From Candidatus Aquitaenariimonas noxiae (GTDB lineage Bacteria > Omnitrophota > Gorgyraeia > Aquitaenariimonadales > Aquitaenariimonadaceae), in the NCBI GenBank assembly GCA_002780005.1, contig PEWV01000075.1:14133-78132 (forward strand): DNA of 64,000 bases, in the 5' to 3' direction. Shown piece after piece: positions 6,266 to 46,629 of this stretch (positions are counted from its first letter, which is position 1; every line of letters begins with the position of its first letter). Below the pieces are notes generated by a model. The model was not told the origin of the DNA and ran no database searches. It was given only the letters and a program-made list of their open reading frames with translations. Position numbers and translations under genes: made by a program.

Positions 6266-6841
6266 TTATTTTTCTTCTGTTAAAAGATACATCGTCATAT
6301 TTATATCTGCCCTGAGTTCCTTTTTTCCTGATTCTTTAAGCATTTTTAGATATTCAACCGTTATAAGCTGCGGCAGATTTTCTTTCAAGGCCAAAAAAAA
6401 CTTACCCAATCCTTTATAGCTGCTGTAGGCGGTTACAAAAACTTGGCTCTTTTGGCAGTATTTTCCTTCTATCATTATTGGTTTCCCGTTTTTACTCAAA
6501 AACGGAATTTTAACTTCGGGCTTCATCGATACAACATTCAATCCGTATTTATGCGCTATATCCGAAATGGAACGAAGCGCGCCTTTTTCATCCGAAGGAA
6601 ATTTGGCATCCAGTTCATCGAGTTTAGTTTTCAGAATAGAAAATCCTTCGTCTATGCTTCTCCCTTTCCCTGTCATGGATTCAACTGCATTAATCTCACC
6701 TTCTGTTTCTTTAAATTCAGTCATAAGTACCTCAACCGAATTTTTTGCCGGCAGATATACAAAAACCAGAAATACTATAAACAAGGTCGCGCTTATTGAA
6801 ATGACAATTAATATTTTTTTCTGTCCTAAGGTGATATACAT
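6266..6841 (-). CDS. PilO-like type IV pilus inner-membrane assembly protein
   Basis: Single N-terminal TM, coiled-coil, then periplasmic domain; located between the pilMN fusion and PilP-like genes. Confidence 0.55.
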   Translation of the reverse strand: MYITLGQKKILIVISISATLFIVFLVFVYLPAKNSVEVLMTEFKETEGEINAVESMTGKGRSIDEGFSILKTKLDELDAKFPSDEKGALRSISDIAHKYGLNVVSMKPEVKIPFLSKNGKPIMIEGKYCQKSQVFVTAYSSYKGLGKFFLALKENLPQLITVEYLKMLKESGKKELRADINMTMYLLTEEK

Positions 6842-6843
6842 TT

Positions 6844-8598
6844 TTACCTCGCCAAAACTGAGCGTATTTCAAATTTCAGAACATCTTTTCCATCGTAACT
6901 TGCCTTACTCGATGAAGAGAGGCTCGTTGCATTAAAAAACGGGGATGCTTCTAATTTTTCCATAAATCCCATCAGATCGCCTTCCAAGTTTTGCGGCGCC
7001 GTAACAACATATCCGTTTAAAATCAATAAATTCTTTTCCTGATTGATCTCTAATGATTCCAATAAGCAGCTCGGAGGCGTAATATTGCTGAGCTCCTTCA
7101 ACACCCAGTCGGGCGGCATCTTATCGCGTTCTATTTGTTCAACAAGAGTTAGTTTTGAAGCAACTTTATTATTTAAATCGCTTATCGCGCCTATAGCTTC
7201 TAAATGAAGTCTCGCATTTTTAAGCCTATTTTTATAGTCATTCACTTCCGACCTAACTACTACTAGGGAGAACAGAAATACAACACCGAGCACCACGCCT
7301 ATGACCCTTAGGGACATTTTTTGCAGGGCTTCCGCTTTCTCGGTCTTGTATTCTTTAGGCAAGAAGCTCGGGCTTTTGCCAGCGCCTATCGCTGCGCCTG
7401 TGAGGTTGTTCAGTTGCGCCATACCTTTATTTCGCGCATCTTTATCTATATTTTGTTTCGTGGCAATAATATTCGTCAAGGATAGTTTTCTCACATTGCA
7501 TTTTAATTCGTTTTGCAAATATACATCCAGGCCTTTTAAATTTGAGCCTCCGCCTGTAAGAAATAAATTTTGCGGAAATTCGTCTTCGAATTTTGAAACA
7601 TAGTAATTTATGGATCTATTTATTTCCGATATTAGCCTCTCAAGGGCGGGCCTCATCAAAGATATGATCTGGCTTCCTTTAATACCGTCTTTCAGTACCT
7701 CTTCCGGGTCTCGGGGGATGCCGAACTCTATTTTCATTTCTTCGGCCTTCTGGGTTGTTAATTCTATTTTGCCGGCGTCCGATACTAGCGTCCCGCTCAT
7801 ACCCATAGTAAGCTGATCTGAACTGAAAGGCAGGTTTCGCAGGAAACTCAATTTGCACTCTTTGTAAATCAAAAATGTAGAGAATGTTGCTCCTATATCA
7901 AGGACCGAGGCTGTACCGCTTTTCGGAATTTCGAGCTTCTCTAAAACATACGAGAAGATATACGAGAAATTAAAAGGCATTAACTTTATGTCTACCACGT
8001 TTAGGCCTGCTTCTTTTATAGGCTTGGCGTACTTGTCTATAAAATCATTTTTTACGCACCCCACCATTATATCTTTTCTTTTCGCTCCGTCTTTATCGGT
8101 GTATTCACCTATGATTTGCCAATCGATTTGAGCCTGCTCTAAATCAAACGGCGCATCACCCTTAATTTCCCATTTGATGGCCTCTTCCATCTCTCTCTGG
8201 GGCATATTCGGCAAAGATATCCTCTTCATTATCACCGAATCTAAATCCTGTGCGTTGATTATAATATCTTTATCTAATATGGAATTAACAGTTATAAAAT
8301 TATTTATAAAATCGAGAATGGCTTTATTATTATCCTCTGAATCGGATGAGCCCAACTCTTTTATATCATACTGCAGAAGTTCAGGCATGTCTTTTGACAG
8401 GCAAAAGAGAGCGATTTTAAGGGTGCGACTTCCTATGTCTAAGGATAAAATTTTACCTTTTTCTTTAGAAAAGATGCCTGTCAGCTCAGGGTTTTTACGT
8501 TTACACAAATTACCGTAGCTTTTAATAAACTGGTCATACAACTTAGTGATTATCTGCACAGGATCATTTGGCAATTGGAATCTTTTACTTGAGATCAT
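6844..8598 (-). CDS. pilMN: PilM-PilN fusion protein (actin-like ATPase domain plus bitopic PilN domain)
   Basis: LSLDIGSRTLKIALF sugar-kinase/actin-like N-terminal domain. Internal TM (LRVIGVVLGVVFLFSLVVV) followed by a PilN-like region. Confidence 0.8.
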   Translation of the reverse strand: MISSKRFQLPNDPVQIITKLYDQFIKSYGNLCKRKNPELTGIFSKEKGKILSLDIGSRTLKIALFCLSKDMPELLQYDIKELGSSDSEDNNKAILDFINNFITVNSILDKDIIINAQDLDSVIMKRISLPNMPQREMEEAIKWEIKGDAPFDLEQAQIDWQIIGEYTDKDGAKRKDIMVGCVKNDFIDKYAKPIKEAGLNVVDIKLMPFNFSYIFSYVLEKLEIPKSGTASVLDIGATFSTFLIYKECKLSFLRNLPFSSDQLTMGMSGTLVSDAGKIELTTQKAEEMKIEFGIPRDPEEVLKDGIKGSQIISLMRPALERLISEINRSINYYVSKFEDEFPQNLFLTGGGSNLKGLDVYLQNELKCNVRKLSLTNIIATKQNIDKDARNKGMAQLNNLTGAAIGAGKSPSFLPKEYKTEKAEALQKMSLRVIGVVLGVVFLFSLVVVRSEVNDYKNRLKNARLHLEAIGAISDLNNKVASKLTLVEQIERDKMPPDWVLKELSNITPPSCLLESLEINQEKNLLILNGYVVTAPQNLEGDLMGFMEKLEASPFFNATSLSSSSKASYDGKDVLKFEIRSVLAR

Positions 8599-8698
8599 TT
8601 TTATATTTTAATATTTTTAGCCTTTCTCACATTATAAAACTTTTCCCCGATATTAACAACGACTTTATTATATTTTCCGTTTAAGACCCGGACCGTTT

Positions 8699-10390
8699 TT
8701 AATTATCGTTCCAGGAATTCTCTTCTACAGAAACACCGTTTAAACCCTGTGGTATGGAAGAATCCACTGCTGAAGCATCATAAGTTATTGTCGCAGGGCC
8801 TAGTGAATCGGAGAAGAATTGGCGTACCAAAAGAGAGCCGGTAACGCTCGAGTTTCCGTTAACTTGGGCCAGCCCCTCGGTTGAGTTTCCATATTGATAA
8901 ACTATGCCTGAAACAGACGCGCCGGAATTTATCTGCAGAGATTGGTTATTTCTGCCCCTGCTTATGACAGCCCCGCTTACCGTTGTGCCGGAATCTTTTA
9001 TCTGCAGCAGATTATTAGAAGCCGAACTTGCATAGTCTACATATAAGGTGCTACTTGTTACATAAGCCCCATCTTGAACGATAAGGCACCGCTGCGCGAT
9101 GATCACGGCACCGTTAATATTGGTAGTTGAATTTCTTATCGTTAACGCATCGCCTGTCCCGCTAGGGCTCCTGGAATATAAATAGCAGTTTCGATTTAAA
9201 GTTACGGATGTGTCAGCTTGACTTGAGTTTAAATTCATATCGCCACCCGACAGGAAATAAATATTCCCTCCGGACGGCGCAGCCGTAAAGGTCCCGGCAT
9301 CGGCGTTCGCATTGTGAATCAATATCTTTCCTTTGACAGAAGTAACTATATAGCCGTAACCGCCCACGTTAACCGTCCCATTTGTGTCAAAATCAGTATG
9401 TATATAGATCTCAAAATTATTTGAATTAATAGCTGCTGTTCCTTCCAGATTAAATGTGCGGGAGCAATTTATTCGATAATCGCGCGCGGTTATCTGGGCA
9501 TTCCCAGTCATATTGAAATCAGTGCTGGTGTTAATAGTGAAATTTGAGGCGTTCGAATCTATGCTCGAGCCGTTTTGAAGGTTAAAAGCCCTGCAGTTTA
9601 CAGTAAAATTGGTACCGGTGATGGAAAACCCATTGGTGTTTATATCTCTTCGGCTTATATTCTGGTTTGTCCAGTTTACGTTGCCGGTCAAGGTAAGATC
9701 GCCTGCGCCGGGGCTGGTATTAATATTTGCATCGTTAATGCGGGTGTTCCAACCCGACATCAAATTATCATAGTAAGCCGTATCCAGAGAGGGCATATCC
9801 GGGAATGACGGCTGAATTGCTTCGGTTGAATATGTACCTGTGCCGTCTATTGTCTCGCCTGAGCCATAATACACTTTACCTCCCGTTACAGAACACGGGG
9901 TATTTATACGCGAGCTGCCCACAGACCAATAGTCGCCTACTATTTGTGTCCCGCTGCCTGTTGTCGAAAAATCGAGTCTCGCGCTCGGACCGTCAAGCTG
10001 CCAAAACACGGCAAACAGGCATGCCTTCGGAGTCTTTTTGGCTGTCGAGCTTATCTGTCTTTGGATGATCTGGCCTGAATAACCCGATACTTTTCCGGTC
10101 ACAGTAAACGAAACATTGTTTGCGCTGGCGCTATTAATTGTTATGTCAAAAGTTCCTGAGCCAAGCTCTATCCCGGTTTGATCGGTTTCATCGGTCCAAT
10201 CGCTGTCGCTGGCTAATTTCTCCAAATACCAATCCCTTCCGCCTTCTACTGCAGCAAATGCCTCGACTCCTCCTGAAAAACCCAGACTGCTTTCCGTGCC
10301 TTGAGTCAAAAGGGAAAAGGCAACTAACGCCACGAGTGAACACGCCAATACCAAAAAAATCATCAGAATTAACGCTACACCTTTTTCCAT
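8699..10390 (-). CDS. PilX-like / pilus tip-associated large secreted protein (Asn/Thr/Ser/Gly-rich, beta-helix-like repeats)
   Basis: N-terminus MEKGVALILMIFLVLACSLVALVAF matches the PilX_N-type hydrophobic segment. 563 aa rich in N/T/S/G. Translationally coupled to the upstream minor pilin (1-nt gap). Confidence 0.5.
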   Translation of the reverse strand: MEKGVALILMIFLVLACSLVALVAFSLLTQGTESSLGFSGGVEAFAAVEGGRDWYLEKLASDSDWTDETDQTGIELGSGTFDITINSASANNVSFTVTGKVSGYSGQIIQRQISSTAKKTPKACLFAVFWQLDGPSARLDFSTTGSGTQIVGDYWSVGSSRINTPCSVTGGKVYYGSGETIDGTGTYSTEAIQPSFPDMPSLDTAYYDNLMSGWNTRINDANINTSPGAGDLTLTGNVNWTNQNISRRDINTNGFSITGTNFTVNCRAFNLQNGSSIDSNASNFTINTSTDFNMTGNAQITARDYRINCSRTFNLEGTAAINSNNFEIYIHTDFDTNGTVNVGGYGYIVTSVKGKILIHNANADAGTFTAAPSGGNIYFLSGGDMNLNSSQADTSVTLNRNCYLYSRSPSGTGDALTIRNSTTNINGAVIIAQRCLIVQDGAYVTSSTLYVDYASSASNNLLQIKDSGTTVSGAVISRGRNNQSLQINSGASVSGIVYQYGNSTEGLAQVNGNSSVTGSLLVRQFFSDSLGPATITYDASAVDSSIPQGLNGVSVEENSWNDN

Positions 10391-10391
10391 A

Positions 10392-10991
10392 TTAAGAAAA
10401 TAGGTCCGAGACCTGTAGAATATTACGAAGCCTTATTTTTGTCCTGAAATAAACGGTATTGTTATTGGATGAGAGCGACATGTCAATTTGCACAAATCTT
10501 ATGTCAGTCGCCTGCGGGCTTACTAAAGGAGCTGGGATAACGTCTCCGTTCCCATCCAGGTATGAGAAGGTAAACGAGGAAACGTTTGAAACAAGCGTGT
10601 CGGCTGTGCCGTTATAGCTTCTTTCCAGATTTGATCCGTTAAGCTGGAATTGCATAGTATTATTATCTATGTCGACGAAACTATAGGAGGTAGCATTAGC
10701 TGTGATTACGCTTGTATTGTTTTTCAGACGACGTATCTCACGGCTCATTCTTCTAAAAGCTGTCTCGGCGCTTTGTGATAAATCTTTCCTATGTATGCTG
10801 TACTTATATGAGTCAACCAATTTAATAGCAACAGGGCCGCCGATACCTACTAATAGGCCTATGATAACTATGACCATTATTAGCTCGATCAGAGTAAACC
10901 CCGTTAGAGATGGGTTGTGTTCACCCATCGGACCTTTAATAGTGCTACGTTTAATGAAAAATTTACTTTTATCAATAATTATCTTGACCAT
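10392..10991 (-). CDS. minor (pseudo)pilin with prepilin-type N-terminal cleavage/methylation domain; 30-aa leader
   Basis: Leader ...EHNPSLTG then FTLIELIMVIVIIGLLVG (G-1, F+1, E+5). Confidence 0.8.
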   Translation of the reverse strand: MVKIIIDKSKFFIKRSTIKGPMGEHNPSLTGFTLIELIMVIVIIGLLVGIGGPVAIKLVDSYKYSIHRKDLSQSAETAFRRMSREIRRLKNNTSVITANATSYSFVDIDNNTMQFQLNGSNLERSYNGTADTLVSNVSSFTFSYLDGNGDVIPAPLVSPQATDIRFVQIDMSLSSNNNTVYFRTKIRLRNILQVSDLFS

Positions 10992-11091
10992 TTTTAGTAA
11001 GATATATTTTTATCTCTAACGGGGTAAACCCGTGCTTAGGTTTTAGGTGATAGGTTATAGGTGATAGGTGTTTTAACATTTTTAAATAGAA

Positions 11092-11568
11092 TCAGTTATT
11101 GGTTGCCAGCGTTACTGCCTCAACACTGGGAAATCCCGGGCGCGAAACTGTTATTTGGATTCTTTTATAGTTTGTAGAAGGGCTAGCGCTCAGCGTATTT
11201 AAATTTCCGCTGTCTACATAATAATAACTCACTTGATGTGAATAATCGCTGAAATTACCCGTGTACTCGGTCGGGCCCTCATTAACAACGTTAGAAAATC
11301 TCAAGTTCGTCACGCGTTCCAATTCGCTTTCTAATAGCGAAGACACTGCTATAAAATGTTCCGGTAAAAATGCGTTTTGCACTGATTCTATAATTACAAC
11401 CGAGACGGGAATTAATATAACAGAAGCAATAACGATCGTCATTATTAATTCTATAAGAGTAAGCCCTTTATCGGAGTTTCGATATTTCCCGCTTTTGCGG
11501 GATCCCGCACATGTATGTCCAAGGCTTGGTATAGGCGGGACGTATTTCGAATTTCGTATTTTTCTCAC
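11092..11568 (-). CDS. minor (pseudo)pilin; 34-aa leader
   Basis: ...NSDKG then LTLIELIMTIVIASVILIP. ATG overlaps the stop of the upstream pilin (ATGA), supporting this start. Confidence 0.75.
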   Translation of the reverse strand: MRKIRNSKYVPPIPSLGHTCAGSRKSGKYRNSDKGLTLIELIMTIVIASVILIPVSVVIIESVQNAFLPEHFIAVSSLLESELERVTNLRFSNVVNEGPTEYTGNFSDYSHQVSYYYVDSGNLNTLSASPSTNYKRIQITVSRPGFPSVEAVTLATNN

Positions 11569-12119
11569 TGTATATACACCCTGCCTGTTCCTCTCTCAAC
11601 CATTATATTTTTAGGACCTGTGATCGTTACGTTAGCCGGATTATTAAGCGCGGTACCACTGCCAGAACCGGCATCATAGCTATAGGGGTCCCCCCATTTG
11701 TCAAATGCCAGATCCTTATTGTTGTCATTAAAATAGACCTCTGTTATGTCAATGCCTTGGAATTCGCTCTCGTTAAACTGAACGGTGTAGTTATTTTTCG
11801 TTAATGGGTTGATCACTAAACTCCAATTTCCCGGGGTATCTTCTATGTAGACTGAGTAGCGATGTTGTGACGTGCTAAATGAGATCCGAGTCCTTTTTTG
11901 AATACTTACGGCTAGCGATTGCGCGTATCTTATGTCCGATTGAATTTTTTGCGCTGCCATATCCGAGCGCATAGCCGGCATATCGACCATCCTTGCGCTT
12001 GCCAGAACAGCCAAAATGCCGATAATGGCCATTACCATTATAAGCTCGAGAAGGGTAAACCCCGTTAGAAAGGCCCTACCCTTTTCATCAGGAATTGAAA
12101 TTCTGTTTGTTTCATCCAT
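11565..12119 (-). CDS. minor (pseudo)pilin (GspH/FimT-like); 19-aa leader
   Basis: ...GRAFLTG then FTLLELIMVMAIIGILA. Confidence 0.8.
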   Translation of the reverse strand: MDETNRISIPDEKGRAFLTGFTLLELIMVMAIIGILAVLASARMVDMPAMRSDMAAQKIQSDIRYAQSLAVSIQKRTRISFSTSQHRYSVYIEDTPGNWSLVINPLTKNNYTVQFNESEFQGIDITEVYFNDNNKDLAFDKWGDPYSYDAGSGSGTALNNPANVTITGPKNIMVERGTGRVYIQ

Positions 12120-12734: not shown

Positions 12735-12760
12735 ATATATTATCACTATATATTATCACT
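12735..12760. repeat. perfect tandem 13-mer ATATATTATCACT x2 spanning the pilC stop codon, about 125 nt upstream of the pilA ATG
   Basis: 12735-12747 and 12748-12760 are identical. Confidence 0.8.
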
Positions 12761-13967
12761 TAAACAATGACATCATATTCCACATCGGCAAAAATATGCC
12801 CAATGCCATGAATAGCACGCCGCAACCTAAGGCAAGTATGAGCACGGGTTCGATCAATGTCGTAAGATTTTTTACGGTATGGTCCGTTTGTGAGTCATAG
12901 TAATCAGATACGTATAAAAGCAACTCATCTACTTTACCCGTCGCCTCTCCGGAAGCGACCATTTGCACTACGATCGGAGGGAACATGCCGCACATTTTCA
13001 TGGGCTCAGACATACCCTTACCTTCATTCACGCTTACTTTTATAATATTAATGGCGCGGGCGATAACAACATTCCCTATGCTTCTTGAGACGAGATCCAA
13101 GATCTGCAATATGGGCACGCCGCTTTTTGTGAGGGTCCCTGTGATACGCGCAAACCTGGACATCGTGATCTTTGTAAAAAGCGGCCCGAAAACCGGAATT
13201 TTTAATTTCAGGCCGTCCCACCAGAACCTGCCGATCTCGGTTTTTACAAACCTGCTGAAACCGAATACAAAAGCTCCTATAACAGTAAGAATAAGCCACC
13301 AAAAATTGATAATAGCATAATGTATGCCTATAAGAACGCGCGTCGGCAAAGGCAGCTCTACATTAAACTGGCTGAATAAGCTCGCAAACCTGGGTATTAT
13401 AAACGTGGTCAAGATCATGAACGCTACTAAGAGCGCCGTTACTACCATAAGAGGATAGCGCGTAGCGGTCATTATCTTTGCCCTTGTCTCTTCTTCGTGC
13501 TCGCCAAGTATAGCGAGCCTGCTCAAGATCTCATCAAGCGTCCCGCTGACCTCTCCGGCCTTCACCATGCTGACATACAGACCATTAAAAACTCTCGGGT
13601 GCTTAGCCAAGGCATCCGAGAAATGCGAACCGGCTTCGATATCTTTTATTATACTCTCGATGGTTGCCTTTAAGATATCGCTACTACTCTGATCCCTGAT
13701 GGCGCTAAGGCTTGTCAAGAGCGGAAGGCCTGATTTCTGCAAAGTCACCAACTGCATCGTGAACATATTCAAGTCAGAAAATCTGACCCTTTTAAATCTC
13801 ATAATAAATTTATCTAAGCCGATCTCTCTTATTTTTTCTTTGATCGAAATAGGCACATAATTCATTTGCTTCAATTTGGAGCCGGCTAATTCTGCGTTAT
13901 CGGCTTCTATAATACCGATCGCCTGTTTTCCGAATTTGTCCCTGGCCTTATACTCAAAAATAGCCAT
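12756..13967 (-). CDS. pilC: type IV pilus platform protein PilC (GspF family)
   Basis: 403 aa; duplicated GspF domains; three TM segments. Confidence 0.9.
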   Translation of the reverse strand: MAIFEYKARDKFGKQAIGIIEADNAELAGSKLKQMNYVPISIKEKIREIGLDKFIMRFKRVRFSDLNMFTMQLVTLQKSGLPLLTSLSAIRDQSSSDILKATIESIIKDIEAGSHFSDALAKHPRVFNGLYVSMVKAGEVSGTLDEILSRLAILGEHEEETRAKIMTATRYPLMVVTALLVAFMILTTFIIPRFASLFSQFNVELPLPTRVLIGIHYAIINFWWLILTVIGAFVFGFSRFVKTEIGRFWWDGLKLKIPVFGPLFTKITMSRFARITGTLTKSGVPILQILDLVSRSIGNVVIARAINIIKVSVNEGKGMSEPMKMCGMFPPIVVQMVASGEATGKVDELLLYVSDYYDSQTDHTVKNLTTLIEPVLILALGCGVLFMALGIFLPMWNMMSLFK

Positions 13968-13968
13968 C

Positions 13969-15654
13969 TTATTCCTCTTCTGTCTTAGTTACCCTTAAAA
14001 CCTCTTCTACGGTCGTAATCCCTTCTTTTGCCTTTGATATGCCGTCGGAAAATAATGTGCCCATGCCTTTAGAGATCGCTATTTTTCTTATTTCGTCAGC
14101 CGAGGCCTTGGCGACTATAAGCTTTCTTATATCTTCGTCCATGATCAATAATTCAAATATGCCTATCCTGCCTGCAAAGCCTGTCCCCCTGCAAGACGCG
14201 CAGCCCTTTCCTCTATAAAATATCATTTTACCTTTAAGGCCCAGGTCTTTCAGCACTTCATCTGAAGGCGTGTGGTTTTCTTTGCATTTGGGACAAACGG
14301 CTCTTACAAGCCTTTGGCCCAGGATCCCCATAACAGAACTTGAAATCAAGAACGGTTCCACGCCCATATCTAAGAGCCTGGCAAGTGCGCTTGGGGCGTC
14401 GTTTGTATGTAGGGTAGAAAACACGAGATGCCCCGTAAGCGCCGCCTGGATCGAGATATCCGCAGTCTCCTTATCCCTTATTTCGCCGACCATAACAACA
14501 TCCGGGTCCTGCCTCAATATACTTCTAAGCCCTGCGGCGAACGTTAATCCGGCCTTTGGATTAACCTGCGTTTGCCTTATAAGAGGCAGCTCGTATTCTA
14601 CCGGGTCCTCAATAGTAATTATATTTTTTTCCATCGAATTGATCGTTGATAACGCGCCGTATAGAGTTGTCGTCTTGCCGCTGCCGGTAGGGCCTGTAAC
14701 CAATATTATCCCGTTTGGTTGATGAATAAGCTTCTCGAACTTTTTTAGGTCGCCTTTTGAGAGGCCAAGTTCGGGCAATCCCAATAGCGCCGTTGATTTA
14801 TCCAACAATCTCATAACGACATTTTCGCCGTGTATCGTCGGAAAACTTGAAACTCTTATATCGATATCGCGGTCTTCTTTCTTTAATTTGATCCGCCCGT
14901 CCTGCGGTTTTCTCTGTTCCGCTATATCCATCTTGGCTAAAATTTTTATCCTGGAAATAACCGCGCTCTGCAGGTGTTTCGGTATAACGTTTATCTCGTG
15001 CAAAATGCCGTCTATGCGATACCGTATCCTCACAGCCGTATCATCCGGTTCAATATGTATATCGCTAGCCCTATCCTTTACTGCCTGGGTGATCATCAAA
15101 TTAACCAATTTTATTATAGGCGGCTCGCCGGCCACCTCGCTTATATCTTTCAAGCCGCCCTTTGCCTTCGTTTCAAATTTCGCCTTATCGATATCTTTTA
15201 TTAATTCATCCACAGTTCCTATTACCCCGTAGTATGAATCCAAAACTTTCTGGATCCCCCGCTCACTCACCAATACGGTATCTACGGAATCTATTTTCGC
15301 CTTTAATCGTATTTCGTCAATCGCGATAATATCCTGAGGGTCAACCATTGCTAATGTAAGAGCATTGCCGATCTTAAATAACGGGACGGCCTTATGTTTT
15401 TTTGCCAGGGTTTCCGGAACAAGCTTTATCACCTCTTGATCTATTATGTAATCGGTCAGATCTATATAAGGAATGTCTAAGGTATCGGCAATGGTGCTCG
15501 CTATCTCTTCCTCGGTAATATAGCCTAATTTCTCGAGCGCCTTTTCCAGGGGAAGGCCCGTCTTTTTCACTTCCTCTCTGGCGCGTTCGATCTGGTCCCT
15601 AGTAATCAGGCCTTTTTTTATAAGTAATTCCATAGCTTCTTGGGTTTTTGCCAT
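13969..15654 (-). CDS. pilB: type IV pilus assembly ATPase PilB (GspE family) with GSPII_E_N/MshEN-like N-terminal domain
   Basis: Walker A GPTGSGKTTT; Asp/His boxes; C-terminal tetracysteine (CPKCK...CASCRGTG). N-terminus LLIKKGLITRDQIERAREE / LEKLGYITEEEIASTIADTL resembles MshEN repeats. Confidence 0.9.
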   Translation of the reverse strand: MAKTQEAMELLIKKGLITRDQIERAREEVKKTGLPLEKALEKLGYITEEEIASTIADTLDIPYIDLTDYIIDQEVIKLVPETLAKKHKAVPLFKIGNALTLAMVDPQDIIAIDEIRLKAKIDSVDTVLVSERGIQKVLDSYYGVIGTVDELIKDIDKAKFETKAKGGLKDISEVAGEPPIIKLVNLMITQAVKDRASDIHIEPDDTAVRIRYRIDGILHEINVIPKHLQSAVISRIKILAKMDIAEQRKPQDGRIKLKKEDRDIDIRVSSFPTIHGENVVMRLLDKSTALLGLPELGLSKGDLKKFEKLIHQPNGIILVTGPTGSGKTTTLYGALSTINSMEKNIITIEDPVEYELPLIRQTQVNPKAGLTFAAGLRSILRQDPDVVMVGEIRDKETADISIQAALTGHLVFSTLHTNDAPSALARLLDMGVEPFLISSSVMGILGQRLVRAVCPKCKENHTPSDEVLKDLGLKGKMIFYRGKGCASCRGTGFAGRIGIFELLIMDEDIRKLIVAKASADEIRKIAISKGMGTLFSDGISKAKEGITTVEEVLRVTKTEEE

Positions 15655-15696: not shown

Positions 15697-16623
15697 TCAC
15701 ATGTTTTTCGGAAGCGTGAAAATAAAATTCGAGAATTTTCCTTTTTCCGATAAAACCCAGATTTTCCCCTTGTGGGCGTCAATAATGTTTTTCGCGATAG
15801 CCAGACCAAGCCCTATACCTGAAGATTTGAACTCTATATTGCCCGATGAATGTTTATCTATGTCGCCGATACCGTAGAAACTCTCAAATATGCTCCCCAA
15901 TTCATCTTTTGGTATACCTATACCGTTATCCTCTACCTCAACGCGTATATTATCTTCCTCATCTTTCGCCCGTATGGTTATTCTGCCCTTGTCCGGAGTA
16001 AATCTTATCGCATTAAGCAGAAGGTTTACCAACACTTGCCGCATACTGTTCCTGTCCATCATAACATGCGGTATGTCCCTTTCAATATCGACAATTATTT
16101 CCTGATTTCTTTTCTTAATAAAAGACATGATATCGCCGGCTGTCGATCTGATAATCACTTCTATAGATGAGGGCTGCAATCTTTTATCAAATCCGCTTGG
16201 AATGTCCAGATATATTTTCGAGAGATCGCTTTTTATTTCTTCCAATCTATTGCAATACTTAACCATTACATCCAGAGCGGTTTTCTGTTCTTCTGTCAGA
16301 GGCCCCAGCGATTTATCCGTGATTAAATTAACATAACCTTTTATAATAGTAATCGGTGTAGCGAGTTCATTTGAAATTGTAAAAGCTGCTTTGGACTTTA
16401 TTTCATGCAGCTTTTCTTTCTCGCCGTAAAGCCGCAGAATATTATATTTTTCTTCCATACTATCAAGCCAAAACAAAAAGAGTAACACGATCGCAAGCGC
16501 GACAAATAAATCCGCAGGCATGATTTGTACCTTTTGATAAACGAATATACTCGTAAGCCGAACCGTTAAAAGCAGGACGCCAACGGCAACTAACGCTACC
16601 TTACGTCTGGATTTTATATGCAT
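15697..16623 (-). CDS. membrane histidine kinase without extracytoplasmic sensor domain (2 TM, HisKA, HATPase_c)
   Basis: H-box ELATPITIIKGY; G-boxes DNGIGIP and GIGLGLAIAK. Confidence 0.8.
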   Translation of the reverse strand: MHIKSRRKVALVAVGVLLLTVRLTSIFVYQKVQIMPADLFVALAIVLLFLFWLDSMEEKYNILRLYGEKEKLHEIKSKAAFTISNELATPITIIKGYVNLITDKSLGPLTEEQKTALDVMVKYCNRLEEIKSDLSKIYLDIPSGFDKRLQPSSIEVIIRSTAGDIMSFIKKRNQEIIVDIERDIPHVMMDRNSMRQVLVNLLLNAIRFTPDKGRITIRAKDEEDNIRVEVEDNGIGIPKDELGSIFESFYGIGDIDKHSSGNIEFKSSGIGLGLAIAKNIIDAHKGKIWVLSEKGKFSNFIFTLPKNM

Positions 16624-16637
16624 TTTATCATCTCTGG

Positions 16638-17006
16638 CTATTTTCCTATTAATTCATGTATCTTAGAGATCAATACCGAAGGCTCAAAGGGCTTCGTTAT
16701 ATACCCATCGGCCCCGACCTCTTCACCAAGTTTCTTATCCGATTCCTGCGCCCTGGCCGTAAACATAAGTATGGGTATTTTCTTATATTTTTCATCAAAT
16801 TTAAGCATGCGGCAAACCTTGTATCCGTCAATTTTAGGTAACATCAAATCCAGTATAATCAGATCGGGCTTCTCTTTACGCGCCTTTTCAAGTGCCTCTT
16901 GGCCGTCGCCGGCTGTCAGCACAATATAGCCATTAGCCTGGAGCCTTAACTTAACCATTTCAACTAATTGAATTTCATCGTCCACTACCAAGATTTTTTT
17001 ACCCAT
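16638..17006 (-). CDS. stand-alone CheY-like response regulator receiver
   Basis: 122 aa; ILVVDDE ... LDLMLPKIDG ... T/K motifs; no output domain. Confidence 0.85.
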   Translation of the reverse strand: MGKKILVVDDEIQLVEMVKLRLQANGYIVLTAGDGQEALEKARKEKPDLIILDLMLPKIDGYKVCRMLKFDEKYKKIPILMFTARAQESDKKLGEEVGADGYITKPFEPSVLISKIHELIGK

Positions 17007-17410
17007 TATTTGTCTCGTTTTTTGGCCCCTTTATACTTATCGGCCATCCTTGAAGCACTAAATATATTAGCAAGTTCTTCTTTCAGGTCATTTGTCTTAA
17101 CAATGAAACCTGAGGCATCCAGCTTTTCGGCCAGATTAAATCTTTCCTCGTTGGAAAATGCCGTTACTATAAACACCGGCAAATTTTTGTCGCGCTTTCT
17201 TATCTTTTTTAACACCTGCAACCCGTTAAGGCCCGGCATCATTATATCAAGCAGCACGGCATCCGGTTTTTCATCTTTGATCTTTTCCAAAGCGCCTTTC
17301 CCGTCGCTAGCCGTAATCACATCATACCCGCTAGATTCTAATCTTAACTTTATCATTTCTACAAAATCAGGCTCGTCATCCACTACTAATATTTTTTTTC
17401 CCATGTTCAC
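17006..17410 (-). CDS. stand-alone CheY-like response regulator receiver
   Basis: 134 aa receiver only; start overlaps the upstream kinase stop. Confidence 0.85.
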   Translation of the reverse strand: MNMGKKILVVDDEPDFVEMIKLRLESSGYDVITASDGKGALEKIKDEKPDAVLLDIMMPGLNGLQVLKKIRKRDKNLPVFIVTAFSNEERFNLAEKLDASGFIVKTNDLKEELANIFSASRMADKYKGAKKRDK

Positions 17411-19161
17411 CTGCTTTTTTTATTTTTTAATTCCCGTTTACCTTTTCCCGGAATTCCCGTTCTGGCCTTATGCAATAACGCCTCATCCGTTATGGCGTCA
17501 TCCGGATAAGTGGCATTACCGAGCAGGACACGAATTTTCCCAAACCATTCTTTTTTGTTCTCCGATAAATAAGCATTGATCGCTTTTTCGATCCTATCCC
17601 TCACGACTTTAACGTTCTCTTTTGAGGTATCAACTAAAAAAACCATCAACTCGCCCGTATCTCTTAAGACGGTATCCGCCTGCCGCCTAAGCGAGCCGGC
17701 AACAACCTTTTCTATGCCCTTAAGTAAACTATGAAACTTATCGCAACCTAATCCTTTTTGCAACTTATCAAAATCTTTTATTCTAATAATTACTACCGAC
17801 AGAGGAATGTTCTTTTCGGATGTTTCCTTTATTTTATTATTAAGATACTCCCTGAACACGGACTCTACTTCCATTTTTGGAAGGTTAAAAGTAAATTCAG
17901 AGCCTTTATTAACTTCGCTCTCAACCATCACTGTTCCTTTATGCAGCTCGACGAGCTGTTTGACAATGCTAAGGCCGAGGCCCGTTCCTTTGGCCCCGGC
18001 GCCGGCAGCTCTATTAAACTGCTGAAACTTATTAAACACCCTCGGCAGGTCTTCTTTGGCAATACCTACGCCCGTGTCCGAAACCGAGATCTCCACTTCA
18101 TCCTTCTTGTCTTTCAGCTCGATTATAATCTTGCCTTTTTCAGGGGTGTATTTTATGGCATTCGAGATCAAATTATTCATAACCTGCGCTATTTTATCAG
18201 CGTCAATATACATGTTCACCTGTTCGTCGGGCACTAAAACTTTGAGCTCTTGGCCTTTCTTGTCAAACTCGGATTTCCATCTAATACACATATCCCTCAT
18301 CATAGCTGCAAAATCCACAAGGGCCCTTTTCAACTCGATCTTACCAGTCTCTATTTTTGATATGTCCAATAAATCATTTATAATACGCGCCAGTCTGTCA
18401 ACATTCTCTTTACTCATTGAAAGGACGTTTTTTTGTTTTTCGTTTATTTTTCCCAGCACCTCATCAAGGGTAAGCGCTAGGCCTTCTTTTATAATAGACA
18501 AGGGTGTACGCAACTCGTGAGAAACCGTAGAAACAAAATCGGACTTCAATTTATCTATTTTTTGGAGCTCTTTATTCTTTTGTTCCAGTTCTTTATAGAG
18601 AAGCTTTATGCCTTCGTTTGCCTTTTTAAGGCCCCATGCCTGCACTTCTAATTCATCCTTAGCGTCTTTAAGCGCCGTCATAGCATTTTTTCGTTCGGTT
18701 ATATCTTCGGCAACTTCAACGAAATGGGTAATTTCTCCTTTTGAATTTGTAATAGGCGAAATTGAGGCCATTTCCCAATATAATCCGCCGTTCTTCATCT
18801 TATTATGAAATTCTCCGCGCCATTCTTTACCCGAGATAATAACTTCCCATAATTCTTTATATACTTCGGGAGGCTGGTCGCCTGCTTTTAGAACACGCAG
18901 GTTTTTCCCCTTAACCTCCTTAAGCGCATAACCTGTCAGTTCGGTAAATTTAGGGTTCACGTATTCAAGATTGCCGTTTTTGTCTGTAATAACAACGGTG
19001 CTCGGGCTGTGCTGAACGGCGCGGGAGAGGATATAAACCTCTTCATTGAACTTATTCTTTTTAGAAAGGGCTGCTTCGAGCTTCCTTACCAGTTTTTGAA
19101 GAGTTTCTATTCTTTTGATAGGTTTTTTGTCTGGCTCTTTTTTATTTTTACTTTTTACCAT
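17407..19161 (-). CDS. PAS-sensor histidine kinase with C-terminal degenerate GGDEF-like domain
   Basis: Coiled-coil, PAS, HisKA (H-box SHELRTPLS), HATPase_c. C-terminal roughly 150 aa follow the GGDEF fold pattern, with RQAD (I-site-like RxxD) then DTGEL in place of GGDEF. Confidence 0.7.
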   Translation of the reverse strand: MVKSKNKKEPDKKPIKRIETLQKLVRKLEAALSKKNKFNEEVYILSRAVQHSPSTVVITDKNGNLEYVNPKFTELTGYALKEVKGKNLRVLKAGDQPPEVYKELWEVIISGKEWRGEFHNKMKNGGLYWEMASISPITNSKGEITHFVEVAEDITERKNAMTALKDAKDELEVQAWGLKKANEGIKLLYKELEQKNKELQKIDKLKSDFVSTVSHELRTPLSIIKEGLALTLDEVLGKINEKQKNVLSMSKENVDRLARIINDLLDISKIETGKIELKRALVDFAAMMRDMCIRWKSEFDKKGQELKVLVPDEQVNMYIDADKIAQVMNNLISNAIKYTPEKGKIIIELKDKKDEVEISVSDTGVGIAKEDLPRVFNKFQQFNRAAGAGAKGTGLGLSIVKQLVELHKGTVMVESEVNKGSEFTFNLPKMEVESVFREYLNNKIKETSEKNIPLSVVIIRIKDFDKLQKGLGCDKFHSLLKGIEKVVAGSLRRQADTVLRDTGELMVFLVDTSKENVKVVRDRIEKAINAYLSENKKEWFGKIRVLLGNATYPDDAITDEALLHKARTGIPGKGKRELKNKKSR

Positions 19162-19164
19162 TTT

Positions 19165-19530
19165 TTAAATAAATTTCTTGGCCGCCTTAAGCAGGCACGA
19201 ACAATCGCTTGTTTTGACGCAATAATCGTCTGCGCCTGCCTTCCGGGCTTTTACAGCATCTATAGCGTCTATAGAACCGGTCGTCACTATGATCTTGGGC
19301 TTAGCGCTGCCGTATTTTTCCCTGATCTTGCGGCAGACATCAAAACCTTCTCCGTCGGGAAGCATCGTGTCTATTATTACCAAATCCGGATTTACCGATT
19401 CCGCTCTCTCGATACCCTCTTTACAGCTCTCTGCTGTAAAAATCTCTCCGTAATTGGCTTTGGTGAAAAATCTTGTTATAATTTTCCTATCCTGCTCATT
19501 ATCGTCTATAACCAAAATCTTAACTTTCAT
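19165..19530 (-). CDS. stand-alone CheY-like response regulator receiver
   Basis: 121 aa receiver only. Confidence 0.85.
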   Translation of the reverse strand: MKVKILVIDDNEQDRKIITRFFTKANYGEIFTAESCKEGIERAESVNPDLVIIDTMLPDGEGFDVCRKIREKYGSAKPKIIVTTGSIDAIDAVKARKAGADDYCVKTSDCSCLLKAAKKFI

Positions 19531-19533
19531 ATA

Positions 19534-20004
19534 TTACGCTCCGCTTGGCAATCTATTTATATGGCACCAGTAGAAACTAAAACCGTCGACAATTTTGGCG
19601 AATTCTTTATAGTCCAGCGGCTTTTGGATAAAACTATTAGCGCCGCTTTTGTAGCTTCTCAATACGTCATTTTCATCCTTGGACGAGGTTAGCATGATTA
19701 TAGGTATAAAATTATACTTAGGGTCTTTTTTAAGCTTTTCTAAAACTCCGAAACCGTCCACCCCAGGCATATTAATATCTAAAATCACAAGGTGCGGCGC
19801 GGGAAACCTATATCTGTCCTGATACTTTCCGCAATTATAAATAAAATCCAGGACTTCCTGGCCGTTTTTAACCACATAAATATTATTTTTAAACTTCGAT
19901 CCGCTAAATGCCCTTAGGGTTATTTTAACATCGGCCTCATTGTCTTCGGCCAGAAGAATATTCATAGGTTTGCTCGTTACTTTTATATCTGAGTTTTTGT
20001 CCAT
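19534..20004 (-). CDS. stand-alone response regulator receiver (Rcp-like)
   Basis: 156 aa; ILLAEDNEAD ... ILDINMPGVDG. Confidence 0.85.
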   Translation of the reverse strand: MDKNSDIKVTSKPMNILLAEDNEADVKITLRAFSGSKFKNNIYVVKNGQEVLDFIYNCGKYQDRYRFPAPHLVILDINMPGVDGFGVLEKLKKDPKYNFIPIIMLTSSKDENDVLRSYKSGANSFIQKPLDYKEFAKIVDGFSFYWCHINRLPSGA

Positions 20005-20018
20005 GATTATTATCTGCT

Positions 20019-22070
20019 CTAAACTTCTATCTTATCTGGCGGAGTGCCTGTTTCTTTTGCCTTTTGTTTTTTAAGCTTCTCCTCGAGCTCCGCTTCGGTG
20101 ATAAGGCCGTCTTCGACAAGTATTTCTCCGATCTTTTTCTTTTCGACCAGGTCTTTCGGTATCGTAAAGTAAAAAGCGGCACCCTTGCCGACTTCCGAGT
20201 CGATCCAAATATTGCCACCATGATCGTCAATTACCTTTTTCACAATGCTCAAACCCGCACCTGTTCCCTCGTACTCATCCGAGGAATGCAGGCGTTTAAA
20301 AAGGCCAAATATCTGCGAGTGGTACTTGGGGTCAATACCTATACCGTTATCTTTGACGTAAAACTTGTGGAATTCGCCGCCATCCAAATACCCGACTTCA
20401 ACTTTAGGATTTTCTTTGTTATTTTTAGATGAAAATTTTATCGCGTTATTTATCAGATTCAAAAATACCTCGCCAAGTTTAATACGGTCGCAATGCACTA
20501 TCGGTATATTTTCATGAATTTTTAAATCTACCTTATTATGGGTGATGTCAAATTTGATGCGCTCCGTAATGGAGCTTATCAGTTCATTTATATCAACATC
20601 TTCGTAAGGGTTTTTAATTCTTGAAACGCGTGAAAGTTTAAGCAAATCTTCGATAAGTCTGTTCATCCTGTCGGCGCCTTTGCGTATCTCATTCAAATAA
20701 TCCTTGCCTTGCTCGTCCAGTTTGCTCTTATAATCCTCCTCCAGAAAACTAGCGAAAGATGAAATACCCCTTAAAGGAGCGCGGAGGTCATGGCTAGCTG
20801 TATACACGAAGGCGTCGAGTTCTTTATTTACCTTTTCTAAAAGTACTTTTTGCTCCTCCACCTTTTCCTTCTCTAATTCGACATTGGCCTTTGCTTGAAC
20901 AAGGGCATCTGTCATCTTATTGAAAGAATTAGCTAATTCTCCGATCTCATCTTTTGTATTTGATTTCACGCGAGCAGAAAAATCGCCTCCGCTTATTACG
21001 CCGGCAACCGCCGTCAAGTCTTTGATCGGTCTTGATACCGAATTTGCTATAATTGCGGCAAGCAACGTAATAAGCGCTAAAAGCGCAAGCCCTATTTTTA
21101 ATAAGGTATTTCTTAGCTCTCTTGCCGAAGTAATGACTTCTTCTGTGTCCATTTTAACAACCATGCCGAGGCGAAAAGAAGGTATATTACGCCATACGCC
21201 CAGGGTTTCTTTACCCATGCAATCAATAGTGGTACCAGAGCCTTCTTCTCCCTGGACGGCTTTTTGTATGCCTAAACCCTCTTTAGATCCAATAGTAATT
21301 TTTCTTGTGAAAGCGGCATTAGGATCGAACCGTGTAGGCGCGATGAATACAGCATCATTGCCGATCTTTGAAGCGATTATCGTTTCCCCTGTTTTACCCA
21401 AACCCGCATAGTCCTTTACAAGCTCGCAAATGCCATCGTTATTCATCTGCAATATAACAACTCCGACAAGGTCTGCGCCCCTAAAGACAGGGGCAGCAAT
21501 AAAAGCCGACGCCTTTTGCGTTTGGGGGTTATATTCAAAATCGGATATTTCCGTCTTTGAGCTCTCTTTGGCCCTCATGAATACTTTTGCCAGTTCAGAA
21601 TTTTTATTAAACAATACTATCTCATAAAGCGATTTCTGTTCTTCTTTTTTCTTTACGGAGAAAATAGCTTCGCCGTTAGGACGGATAAGAACGAGGTCTT
21701 CATAGCCATATGCCTTTTGATAGTACGCCAGAAACGGCCTGAATTCCTGGTCAACGGCTGTATATTCCGGGGAATTCATTCCTCCGGCGTAAAATGCTTT
21801 ATCAAATTTCTCTATAGCTATCACTATATCCGACATATAAGATAGCGTGGTTACATTTTTCTCTTTTTCATGCAGGTATGATTCAACCCGATTGGCCTTA
21901 TCGTCGGCAACAGCCAGAAGGCTATTAGCCACTTCTTTTTCAAGTACCTTTTTAGAAGTGCTATAGCTTATATAAGTAGCTATAATTAATGGTACTAATG
22001 CGATAAATAAAAACCACAGGATGAACTTGGCGGTTATCCTAAGATTATTAAAATATGCTAATTGGCGCAT
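20019..22070 (-). CDS. sensor histidine kinase (dCache-like periplasmic domain, HAMP, HisKA, HATPase_c) with C-terminal 24-aa MshEN-type motif
   Basis: Two TMs flank a roughly 280-aa extracytoplasmic domain; H-box SHDLRAPL. Tail KIGEILVEDGLITEAELEEKLKKQ matches RLGxxLLxxGLIxxxxLxxxLxxQ at all conserved positions. Confidence 0.8.
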   Translation of the reverse strand: MRQLAYFNNLRITAKFILWFLFIALVPLIIATYISYSTSKKVLEKEVANSLLAVADDKANRVESYLHEKEKNVTTLSYMSDIVIAIEKFDKAFYAGGMNSPEYTAVDQEFRPFLAYYQKAYGYEDLVLIRPNGEAIFSVKKKEEQKSLYEIVLFNKNSELAKVFMRAKESSKTEISDFEYNPQTQKASAFIAAPVFRGADLVGVVILQMNNDGICELVKDYAGLGKTGETIIASKIGNDAVFIAPTRFDPNAAFTRKITIGSKEGLGIQKAVQGEEGSGTTIDCMGKETLGVWRNIPSFRLGMVVKMDTEEVITSARELRNTLLKIGLALLALITLLAAIIANSVSRPIKDLTAVAGVISGGDFSARVKSNTKDEIGELANSFNKMTDALVQAKANVELEKEKVEEQKVLLEKVNKELDAFVYTASHDLRAPLRGISSFASFLEEDYKSKLDEQGKDYLNEIRKGADRMNRLIEDLLKLSRVSRIKNPYEDVDINELISSITERIKFDITHNKVDLKIHENIPIVHCDRIKLGEVFLNLINNAIKFSSKNNKENPKVEVGYLDGGEFHKFYVKDNGIGIDPKYHSQIFGLFKRLHSSDEYEGTGAGLSIVKKVIDDHGGNIWIDSEVGKGAAFYFTIPKDLVEKKKIGEILVEDGLITEAELEEKLKKQKAKETGTPPDKIEV

Positions 22071-22120: not shown

Positions 22121-22312
22121 TTAATTATTTTGTGTATTACCGTTCACATGGCTGCTTCTAAACCATTCGTCAATTTCAGTCTTTTTAAATCTCCATAAAT
22201 GCCCAACCTTCGAAGCTGGGATCTTTCTGTTTTTGGCAAGACGATACACCGTCATTATGTCGACCTTTAGGTAGCTTGCCAACTCTTCTGCGGTAAGAAA
22301 ATCTGAAACCAA
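22121..22312 (-). CDS. small helix-turn-helix (excisionase/MerR-type) DNA-binding protein
   Basis: 63 aa; LTAEELASYLKVDIMTVYRLAKNRKIPASKVGHLWRFKKTEIDEW; TTG start with AGGAG SD. Confidence 0.6.
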   Translation of the reverse strand: MVSDFLTAEELASYLKVDIMTVYRLAKNRKIPASKVGHLWRFKKTEIDEWFRSSHVNGNTQNN

Positions 22313-45088: not shown

Positions 45089-46629
45089 TTACTCCCACTC
45101 TATCGTAGAAGGCGGCTTGGATGAAATATCATAAACAACCCTGTTGATGCCTTTGACTTCATTTATAATACGGCTCGATATGGTTTCAAGCAACTCGTAG
45201 GGAAGCTTGGCCCAGTGAGCGGTCATTGCGTCTTCGCTCGTCACAGCCCTTACCGCAACCACATTCTCGTAAGTCCTCTCATCACCCATAACCCCTACTG
45301 TTTTTATAGGTAACAATACGCAGAATGACTGCCATAATTTTCTATAAAGGCCACTTCGTTTTATTTCATCTATCAATATCCAGTCGGCTTCCCGTAAAAG
45401 GTCAAGCCTATTCTTAGTGATCTTGTCTATTACGCGAACCGCAAGGCCCGGCCCCGGGAAAGGCTGTCTATAAATAGCTTCTTCCGGCATACCTAGTTCT
45501 TTTCCGAGTAGCCTTACCTCATCTTTAAATAAATCCTTAAGAGGCTCTATCAGTTCAAAATCCATGCGGGAAGGAAGTCCTCCTACATTGTGATGTGTCT
45601 TAATGGTCGCCGAAGGCCCGCCTATCGGGGATTTTGATTCTATTACATCAGGGTATAACGTGCCCTGGGCTAAAAATTTTATTTTCCCCATTTTTTTTGC
45701 TTCTTTCTCAAAAATTCTTATAAATAACTTGCCTATGATCTTGCGTTTTTTCTCAGGGTCCGTGACCCCTTTTAAACCGTTCAAAAAAACTTTACTCGCG
45801 TCGATTACTTTCAGGTTTATACGAAAGTTTTTTCTGAATCTTTTCTCGACAAGCTCGGACTCATGTTTGCGCAACAGCCCGTTATCGATAAAGATGGCGA
45901 CAAGATTTTTACCTATAGCCTTATGAAGAAGCACTGCCAACACCGAAGAATCCACGCCGCCGCTTAACCCGCATAGAACTTTTTCACCGTTTATCCGGTT
46001 TCTTAATTCTTTAATCGTGTTTTGCGCAAAAGAATACATATCCCACGATGGCTTGCATCCTGCTATATTAAATAGAAAATTTTTCAATATGATCTTCCCT
46101 TTTGGCGTGTGAACGACCTCGGGATGGAACTGAACCCCGAAAAAGTTTTTTTCAGGATGTTCCATAGCGGCGACCGGAGAATTTGAGGTGGAGCCTATTA
46201 CCCTAAAGCCCTTTGGCAATTTTGTTATCCTGTCTCCGTGGCTCATCCAGATCGTCTCTTTCGAAAGTAAATCTTTAAACAATGTCTTTTTTGATCTAAT
46301 GCTAAGGGTCGCCTTTCCATATTCCCGTGTCTTAGCCTTAGCAACATTCCCTTCCAATAATTTGGCCATAAGCTGCGCGCCGTAGCATATGCCGAGAACG
46401 GGTATGCCCATATTAAAAATATCCTTATCACATACGGGAGATTTTGCTGCGGTAACGCTGGCAGGGCCGCCTGACAAAATAACCGCTTTTGGTTTGCGAG
46501 CCGAAAGTTCATCCGCCCCTATATTGTAAGGCACTATTCCAGAGTAAACCTTATGCTCGCGTATCCTGCGGGTAATAAGATGGGTGTATTGAGAGCCAAA
46601 ATCTAAAATCGCTATCCAGTCTCTATCCA
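45089..46629 (-). CDS. guaA: GMP synthase (glutamine-hydrolysing)
   Basis: GATase domain (ILDFGSQYT, catalytic GICYG) plus ATP-PPase SGGVDSSV and C-terminal dimerisation domain. Start revised to GTG at 46629 (GGAGGA SD). The ORF-track N-terminal extension overlaps carB. Confidence 0.88.

Follow-up and report, generated by a model that had tools for sequence, protein, structure and literature searches.

In a stretch of 64,000 nucleotides from Candidatus Aquitaenariimonas noxiae, a bacterium of the phylum Omnitrophota (contig PEWV01000075.1; the whole stretch is called the window below), the genes of two histidine kinases, HK1 and HK2, are situated directly upstream of pilB-pilC, the pseudopilin genes, pilMN and pilO. 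Each of these kinases ends in a putative receptor module for the second messenger cyclic di-guanosine monophosphate (c-di-GMP). The C-terminal tail of HK1 contains a single 24-residue MshEN unit, which supplies one half of a c-di-GMP site in MshE of Vibrio cholerae, and the C-terminal domain of HK2 is a catalytically dead GGDEF-fold domain with a conserved I-site. The best explanation of these features as a whole, to which a likelihood somewhat short of even is given from the sequences, is that paired HK1 tails and the HK2 I-site would pass c-di-GMP signals into a phosphorelay linked to the pilus.

The MshEN unit at the C-terminus of HK1

HK1 is a membrane sensor kinase of 683 residues (20019..22070; this and all other window features below are on the minus strand), in which Pfam identifies dCache_1, HAMP, HisKA and HATPase_c domains. 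The last strand of the ATPase domain is followed by a Lys-rich linker of seven residues (KDLVEKK, residues 639-645, 20136..20156), which has a fixed offset in the orthologues and leads to the 24-residue unit KIGEILVEDGLITEAELEEKLKKQ (residues 646-669, 20064..20135). The unit is succeeded by an extreme C-terminus (KAKETGTPPDKIEV, 20022..20063) that varies when the tails are listed together and has a predicted local distance difference test (pLDDT) score below 50 in the AlphaFold2 (AF2) model. HK1 carries one unit only, and there is no second unit elsewhere in HK1 or in the window. The place of the tail and its single copy are exactly those given in an earlier first-pass annotation of this DNA. 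The statement made there that the tail matches every conserved position of the motif RLGxxLLxxGLIxxxxLxxxLxxQ was slightly overstated: the fit is good, with conservative changes of Arg to Lys at position 1 and Leu to Ile at position 2, and with Val at position 7. All consensus residues of the unit are present, namely R(K)1, L/I2, G3, L6, a hydrophobic residue at 7, G10, a hydrophobic residue at 12, L17, L21 and Q24.

Across all six reading frames of the window, 64 kb in length, the strict motif occurs once. Its only occurrences in a further 1.36 Mb of fetched DNA are the tails of orthologous kinases, and when the HK2 family and every fetched locus were scanned for the motif, matches were again confined to HK1 orthologue tails. 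The relaxed motif in the literature also matches transmembrane segments and was left out of the counting. Upon searching the PDB with the tail, all 14 matches were to MshEN-type proteins, the best single match being motif 1 of V. cholerae MshE (5HTL residues 7-33, E 9.6e-5). A profile built from 44 orthologue tails matches PilF (1.2e-19), Geobacter PilB (3.8e-11) and V. cholerae MshE (4e-8). Judging by these searches, the resemblance of the tail to the MshEN motif is not due to chance.

The NCBIfam profile NF053729.1 ("cyclic di-GMP-binding domain, MshE-related"), which has 53 positions and a cut-off of 38 bits, matches the HK1 tail over positions 1-27 with an E-value of 8.5e-8 and 31.9 bits. 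The score is under the cut-off because only half of the model is present; other single orthologue tails score 27-35 bits over positions 1-24/26. Pfam MshEN (PF05157) gave no match on HK1 at E up to 1, which is uninformative because the part of PilB covered by this model is the C-terminal subdomain (residues 59-143) and the motif region lies outside it. The tail is composed of the same 24-residue unit as MshEN_N of MshE (5HTL; Wang et al. 2016, PMC5013675), having the same conserved positions (K/R1, hydrophobic 2, G3, L6, G10, L17, L21, Q24) and, as in MshE, a basic N-terminal flank. However, HK1 has Lys for Arg at position 1 and one unit, whereas MshEN_N has two tandem 24-residue motifs that are separated by a spacer of about five residues and form a four-helix bundle. 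The unit of HK1 is located at the C-terminus of a HisKA-type sensor kinase, and a complete site would need two polypeptides. The AF2 model predicts, with moderate confidence (pLDDT about 62-78), a helix at residues 647-653, a turn at 654-658 and a helix at 659-673, that is, a helix-turn-helix hairpin with the conserved Gly at the turn.

A search of 1.84 billion representative sequences with the tail profile returned 10,370 proteins at E up to 1e-3, the best 150 of which all have 3-12 units. The number of units is odd in 68 of these best 150 matches. Six long proteins of about 900-1180 residues (P0241, P0242, P0245, P0247, P0252, P0254) have arrays of three units with a spacing of about 31 residues, repeated two or three times. 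Odd numbers being common among the top matches, the 24-residue unit is not always deployed in pairs.

The 120 closest orthologues of HK1 (56-69% identity) include 43 that have one intact unit, one that has two and three with obvious remnants. The tails of 39 orthologues were gathered with a permissive pattern, allowing eight residue types at positions 24, 21 and 6. In these, G3, L6, L21 and Q24 are nevertheless 100% conserved, as is position 1 when K and R are taken as one class (Lys in 95%), while G10 is found in 97% and L17 in 92%. The unit starts 7-8 residues past the last strand of the ATPase domain in 36 of the 39 tails, and occasionally 9-11 residues past it. Conservation is at least 90% at two linker lysines (K6 and K7 of alignment A3), whereas the residues past Q24 are free to vary. 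The mean identity of the tails is 65%, compared with 63% for the whole HK1 protein. To judge by this pattern, the tail is under purifying selection where it is present. In the orthologue with two units (P0021), these start at residues 641 and 670, which is the canonical period of 29 residues, and the protein passes the NF053729.1 cut-off over positions 1-53 with 50.3 bits. A complete MshEN_N domain thus does occur on the HK1 family.

In the structure of MshE with c-di-GMP, the amides of G3 and of the next residue read the Hoogsteen edge of the guanine, and Q24 binds ribose and phosphate (PMC5013675). These two positions, which serve the ligand only, are invariant in the HK1 tails and have drifted, along with position 1, in the PilB proteins of the same loci, in which the structural positions are kept. 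The contrast speaks for a tail that binds the ligand rather than one whose role is purely structural. It is therefore unlikely, if by no means negligibly so, that the tail is a nucleotide-independent protein-protein hairpin that acts as a dimerisation element, or as the docking pair of an MshEN/GSPII-type module such as the degenerate N-terminus of PilB, and that shares with the c-di-GMP motif the helical-hairpin fold only. The window, moreover, has no second unpaired unit that might be a partner. Such a docking role is nevertheless in keeping with the Lys at position 1 of the tails and with the many MshEN domains that do not bind c-di-GMP, among them XpsE and the GSPII-A domain of PilF. A docking use of MshEN on the HK1 family is also hinted at by P0049, an orthologue of 809 residues. 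This protein has no C-terminal tail; its residues 1-150 form a complete PilB-like MshEN domain before the first transmembrane helix, the motifs of which are degenerate (NF053729.1 18.2 bits).

A separate feature of the HK1 C-terminus is a peptide P-[PE]-[EK]-Y-[KEH]-G (for example GPPEYKGEI), with which many orthologues end (P0002, P0003, P0010, P0018, P0022, P0053, P0056, P0062). In P0056 and P0062 it is present in the absence of an MshEN unit, and HK1 of the window has a degenerate version, GTPPDKIEV (20022-20048). Chemoreceptors have a C-terminal pentapeptide, and by analogy with it the end peptide may be a docking peptide.

The GGDEF-fold domain of HK2 and the PilB N-terminus

HK2 is a cytoplasmic kinase of 584 residues (17407..19161), composed, according to Pfam, of PAS, HisKA, HATPase_c and degenerate GGDEF domains. 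The last of these (residues 435-568, 17458..17859) is matched by PF00990 with 37.6 bits, compared with a cut-off of 23.8. Its AF2 model has a pLDDT of 88.5, the top 50 structures retrieved with it by Foldseek are all GGDEF domains (TM 0.6-0.7), and the profile of the HK2 family matches cyclases in the PDB down to 4e-16. By profile and predicted structure alike, the C-terminal domain of HK2 is a true GGDEF fold. However, the A-site hairpin is reduced to DTGEL (residues 501-505, 17647..17661) in place of (Y)GGDEF, as found in HMM alignments to 6D9M, 5EUH, 4URG and 4ZVE. In the profile alignment the hairpin reads T-GEL with a one-residue deletion, and the DxD metal site, the N/D guanine contacts and the GG pair are lost. 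As the hairpin, the metal-binding Asp and the Asn/Asp guanine contacts are all replaced, the domain cannot make c-di-GMP. The residues of active cyclases are likewise missing across the HK2 family.

The I-site, by contrast, is retained. R493-Q-A-D496 (17674..17685) is situated five residues before the beta-hairpin, with the canonical spacing of active cyclases. R523 (17593..17595), in the helix after strand beta-3, aligns with the first Arg of the cyclase "AERIR" helix in 6D9M, occupies an invariant column (R100 of A2), and would correspond to R390 of PleD. The HisKA-HATPase_c-GGDEF architecture is common to about 90 Omnitrophota relatives of HK2, and R493, D496 and R523 are the most conserved feature of these proteins. 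Among 34 diverse members of the family, neither D496 nor R523 varies and R493 is kept in at least 90%; the site is conserved across 94 family sequences in all.

An RxxD motif five residues before the hairpin, a downstream Arg and a degenerate A-site are the sequence features of receptors of the SgmT/PopA kind, and the same residue combination defines SgmT of Myxococcus xanthus and PopA of Caulobacter, both of which are experimentally proven I-site receptors (PMC3509222). SgmT, too, is a histidine kinase and belongs to a type IV pilus-linked pathway, but it has a GAF sensor and a receiver between the kinase and the GGDEF domain, whereas HK2 has a PAS sensor and no receiver (PMC3509222). The A-site hairpin is GGGVF in SgmT and the shortened T-GEL in HK2, and the two proteins are likened by their features. 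By its sequence and by this analogy, HK2 is best filed as a new member of the SgmT/PopA kind and as a putative I-site receptor for c-di-GMP.

Degenerate GGDEF domains are known to serve other roles, protein docking among them (PMC9061725). The Pfam score of the HK2 domain is modest as well. Yet a domain that was merely structural, dimerising as an output module, or that sensed another nucleotide such as GTP, would hardly be expected to keep the I-site triad as the most conserved feature of its family and to have every GTP or metal contact replaced. Together with the precedent of SgmT and PopA, this makes a non-receptor role of the domain improbable, to about the same degree as the docking role of the HK1 tail.

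The assembly ATPase PilB (561 residues, 13969..15654; T2SSE E 1e-139, TIGR02538 638.6 bits) has an MshEN_N-like four-helix region at residues 6-58 (15481..15639), which was delineated with NF053729.1 and alignments to Geobacter and Myxococcus PilB and to PilF. The region scores 42.1 bits with NF053729.1, over the cut-off of 38, and the N-terminus matches 5HTL with an E-value of 1e-15. Both units, however, lack positions 1, 3 and 24, which are occupied by E6, M8 and V29 in unit 1 and by P35, E37 and T58 in unit 2. The NF053729.1 match (positions 4-51 of 53) accordingly skips R-L-G and the final Q, and none of the syntenic PilB proteins examined has the strict motif. In PilF, replacement of R by S, or of Q by H or R, abolishes binding and replacement of G by A weakens it (PMC12002112), and in XpsE the changes G11V, R38G, G40L and Q61V are among those blamed for lost binding (PMC5013675). 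The window PilB thus has the N-terminal MshEN architecture of the GSPII-B/C domains of T. thermophilus PilF (PMC11731258) and of MshE, but in its missing binding residues it resembles the non-binding PilF GSPII-A and XpsE. Because replacements at comparable positions are harmful in PilF and blamed in XpsE, direct sensing of c-di-GMP by this PilB is doubtful. The MshEN-like N-terminus has probably lost ligand binding, and it is quite unlikely that PilB gates pilus extension directly as a c-di-GMP sensor.

The first-pass annotation had reported, besides the HK1 tail, the degenerate GGDEF-like domain with RQAD before DTGEL on the PAS kinase and the MshEN-like N-terminus of PilB. Both descriptions hold. 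It had also proposed that the phosphorelay and pilus extension are together gated by c-di-GMP through non-canonical receptor modules. Both kinase modules gave significant profile matches and show conservation among orthologues: 44 of the 120 closest carry the tail, and about 90 kinase-GGDEF relatives retain the I-site. For the two kinases the proposal is therefore a well-founded receptor hypothesis, but it does not extend to pilus extension through PilB, in which positions 1, 3 and 24 are lost.

Pairing of HK1 tails as a possible c-di-GMP site

Each unit of MshE "binds half" of the ligand, the two halves are interlocked, and each guanine is contacted from both units (PMC5013675). Unit 1 contributes R9 and L25/L29, and unit 2 contributes L39, to the stack around Gua1. 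Gua2 rests on L10 from unit 1 and on L54/L58 from unit 2, and a basic N-terminal patch (K5/R7/K8/R9) helps binding (PMC5013675). A lone hairpin therefore cannot form the site, and two tails must pair if HK1 is to bind the ligand. Two identical hairpins could form the pocket, with an exact two-fold symmetry to match that of c-di-GMP. Histidine kinases are obligate dimers, which makes pairing of the tails the simplest reading.

According to this proposal, the MshEN unit of HK1 would be a helix-turn-helix hairpin supplying one half of the c-di-GMP site. Two tails would pack into a symmetric four-helix bundle and clamp one c-di-GMP molecule. The tails might come from the two subunits of one kinase dimer or from neighbouring membrane dimers, with clustering as for SgmT. 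The Lys-rich linker of HK1 parallels the K5/R7/K8/R9 positive patch of MshE (PMC5013675). Because the tether is short, formation of the bundle should restrain or reposition the ATPase domain, and would thereby shift the balance between kinase and phosphatase activity or cluster the kinases. The inputs of HK1 and HK2 would then tune how far four CheY-like single-domain receivers are phosphorylated. These receivers lack a DNA-binding output and would most plausibly work through protein contacts with the pilus machine encoded next to them. In this manner c-di-GMP would feed into a conserved network of three kinases and four receivers upstream of pilB-pilC. The two-unit tail of P0021 can be regarded as a natural "covalent dimer" of the unit and is counted in favour of pairing. 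From the sequence, binding of c-di-GMP by paired tails is a tentative proposal, its likelihood lying between low and not quite even. The more specific picture of a "split" site, completed once two subunits or neighbouring dimers join their tails, with c-di-GMP as a molecular staple, stands at the lower end of that range and is rather unlikely.

Several points weigh against ligand binding by the tails. Position 1 is Lys in nearly all of them and not the guanine-stacking Arg. Ser at this position abolishes binding in a PilF construct (PMC12002112), and Lys is allowed there only in the relaxed search motif (PMC5013675). The GSPII-A domain of PilF with restored consensus is still non-binding in the full domain (PMC12002112), showing that a perfect consensus is no guarantee of binding if the context is unfavourable. 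With a tether of seven residues, the tails of one dimer may be unable to reach each other. Binding of c-di-GMP by SgmT relocalised the kinase and left its activity in vitro unchanged (PMC3509222). No active diguanylate cyclase was found in the 64-kb window. Finally, the tail is absent from roughly 60-70% of orthologues in otherwise the same clusters, being present in about 21 of 65 genomic or metagenomic loci that have a complete HK1 C-terminus. When its presence and absence are placed on a neighbour-joining tree of the orthologues, at least 21 gain or loss events are required, and decayed or truncated copies exist (P0025, P0026, P0027, P0044, P0096, L106, L113, L129). The tail is thus not essential to the pathway. 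On the evidence of these state changes and decayed versions it is a maintained but dispensable accessory.

The decay of the tail can be followed in independent cases (L129, L106, L113, L097, L099), which are snapshots of module loss. The L129 tail has a stop just past the start of helix 2 (KKKLGQILLEEGLITEQKRS*), the L113 tail has G10 changed to R, and in the L106 tail the hydrophobic positions are scrambled.

That the tail of the window HK1 is itself a decaying remnant of a former complete MshEN_N domain, having no present function here, would fit the patchy distribution with its many state changes, the decayed copies and the complete two-unit form in P0021, but it is very unlikely, because intact tails are as conserved as the kinase core and because the invariant columns, the fixed linker length and the free variation past the motif point to a maintained module that is lost whole in some lineages and not to neutral decay in this one.

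Gene neighbourhood, related systems and implications

The genes of the cluster are transcribed in the order HTH, HK1, RRa, RRb, HK2, RRc, RRd, HK3, pilB, pilC, pilin genes and pilMNO. The first encodes a small DNA-binding protein of the HTH_17 family (excisionase/MerR-like; 22121..22312; PF12728 E 6.5e-16), which has the same position in the orthologous locus L002. HK1 is followed by two single-domain response regulators that are syntenic in orthologous loci, RRa (156 residues, 19534..20004; Pfam Response_reg E 9.7e-19) and RRb (121 residues, 19165..19530; E 1.3e-23). The HK1 orthologue P0059 (807 residues) has an RRb-like receiver domain fused to the C-terminus of the kinase, which supports RRb as a direct partner of HK1. 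HK2 is followed by two further single-domain response regulators, RRc (134 residues, 17006..17410; E 3e-29) and RRd (122 residues, 16638..17006; E 2.3e-29), and by HK3, a short membrane histidine kinase of 308 residues (15697..16623) with HisKA and HATPase_c domains in Pfam, which is also found in L002. Downstream of PilB are the platform protein PilC (12756..13967; T2SSF E 2.2e-56) and a region (6266..12119) in which three N_methyl pseudopilins, a 563-residue protein, a PilM-PilN fusion and PilO are encoded, the families being assigned with Pfam. The remainder of the window is occupied by genes of housekeeping metabolism.

A protein of Candidatus Omnitrophica bacterium CG07_land has the same sequence as HK1 (100% identity). 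The gene order from HK1 to pilB-pilC recurs in other Omnitrophota genomes and metagenome contigs, with or without the HK1 tail, and the signalling cluster next to the pilus genes is conserved in Omnitrophota.

Searched against Pfam at E up to 0.01, the open reading frame of 563 residues (8699-10390) that separates the pseudopilin genes from pilMN gave no match. L002 has an open reading frame of similar size after the pilins, likewise without a Pfam match, and the product may be an uncharacterised pilus component. All identified genes of the window (1-64000) are on the minus strand and all 2-kb bins show a negative GC skew (-0.03 to -0.23), consistent with a long co-directional stretch of one replichore. 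The large chain of carbamoyl-phosphate synthase is encoded at 46623-48287 by an open reading frame of 554 residues containing only the first preATP-grasp, ATP-grasp and oligomerisation domains. The syntenic protein of L002 has 1076 residues, and the window enzyme may be a split or half-size carbamoyl-phosphate synthase.

Other components of c-di-GMP signalling were found in Omnitrophota loci. The tail-less orthologous cluster of L002 has a stand-alone PilZ protein (14933-15301 of that locus) between the receivers and HK3, the locus L001 has a second PilB with a C-terminal PilZ domain (1-1475 of that locus) 8 kb upstream, and a canonical GGDEF cyclase is present in another Omnitrophota locus. 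Together with the HK2 I-site, these are counted as linking the cluster to c-di-GMP. The idea that a stand-alone PilZ protein replaces the tail in tail-less clusters was dropped, as among the 65 loci there is one clear case (L002) and one weak regex match (L119), which is too few, and these loci yield no usable statistical association of tail loss with PilZ gain. An Rfam scan of the window found no c-di-GMP riboswitch, nor any Rfam family at all.

In CckA, ShkA and RavS, c-di-GMP acts directly on a sensor kinase and changes the balance of kinase and phosphatase activity. Their binding sites are in the ATPase domain or a pseudo-receiver domain, and no appended MshEN unit or GGDEF I-site is involved. 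To our knowledge few histidine kinases sense c-di-GMP directly, and all MshEN receptors known to us carry both half-sites in one chain. MshEN_N is also found as a stand-alone module on unrelated domains, with C-terminal cases that include NfrB and a TrxB fusion, and it occurs in CheA (PMC5013675). The table of MshEN architectures in that paper includes CheA-MshEN_N but no HisKA kinase and no single unit (PMC5013675). A single MshEN unit on a HisKA kinase is thus not among the architectures in this table, whereas the GGDEF module of HK2 is of a known kind, a GGDEF receptor on a kinase having its direct experimental precedent in SgmT (PMC3509222).

Should the paired tails fail to bind c-di-GMP, conservation of a perfect MshEN consensus would prove an unreliable predictor of ligand binding. 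If they do bind it, HK1, an obligate dimer with a conserved half-site, would exemplify in nature an assembly that is completed by its ligand, and the MshEN unit, rather than the 53-residue pair, would be the evolutionary and functional building block. More receptors could then be sought as unpaired 24-residue units on oligomeric proteins. The tails would also represent a new mode of second-messenger control over two-component signalling, in which c-di-GMP drives or locks a protein-protein contact. Omnitrophota are an uncultivated phylum, often of host-attached nanobacteria, and their surface behaviour has so far been beyond genetic study. In these bacteria the tails of HK1, together with the neighbouring I-site kinase HK2, would place c-di-GMP upstream of a network of several kinases and several CheY-like receivers that is hard-wired to the type IV pilus genes.

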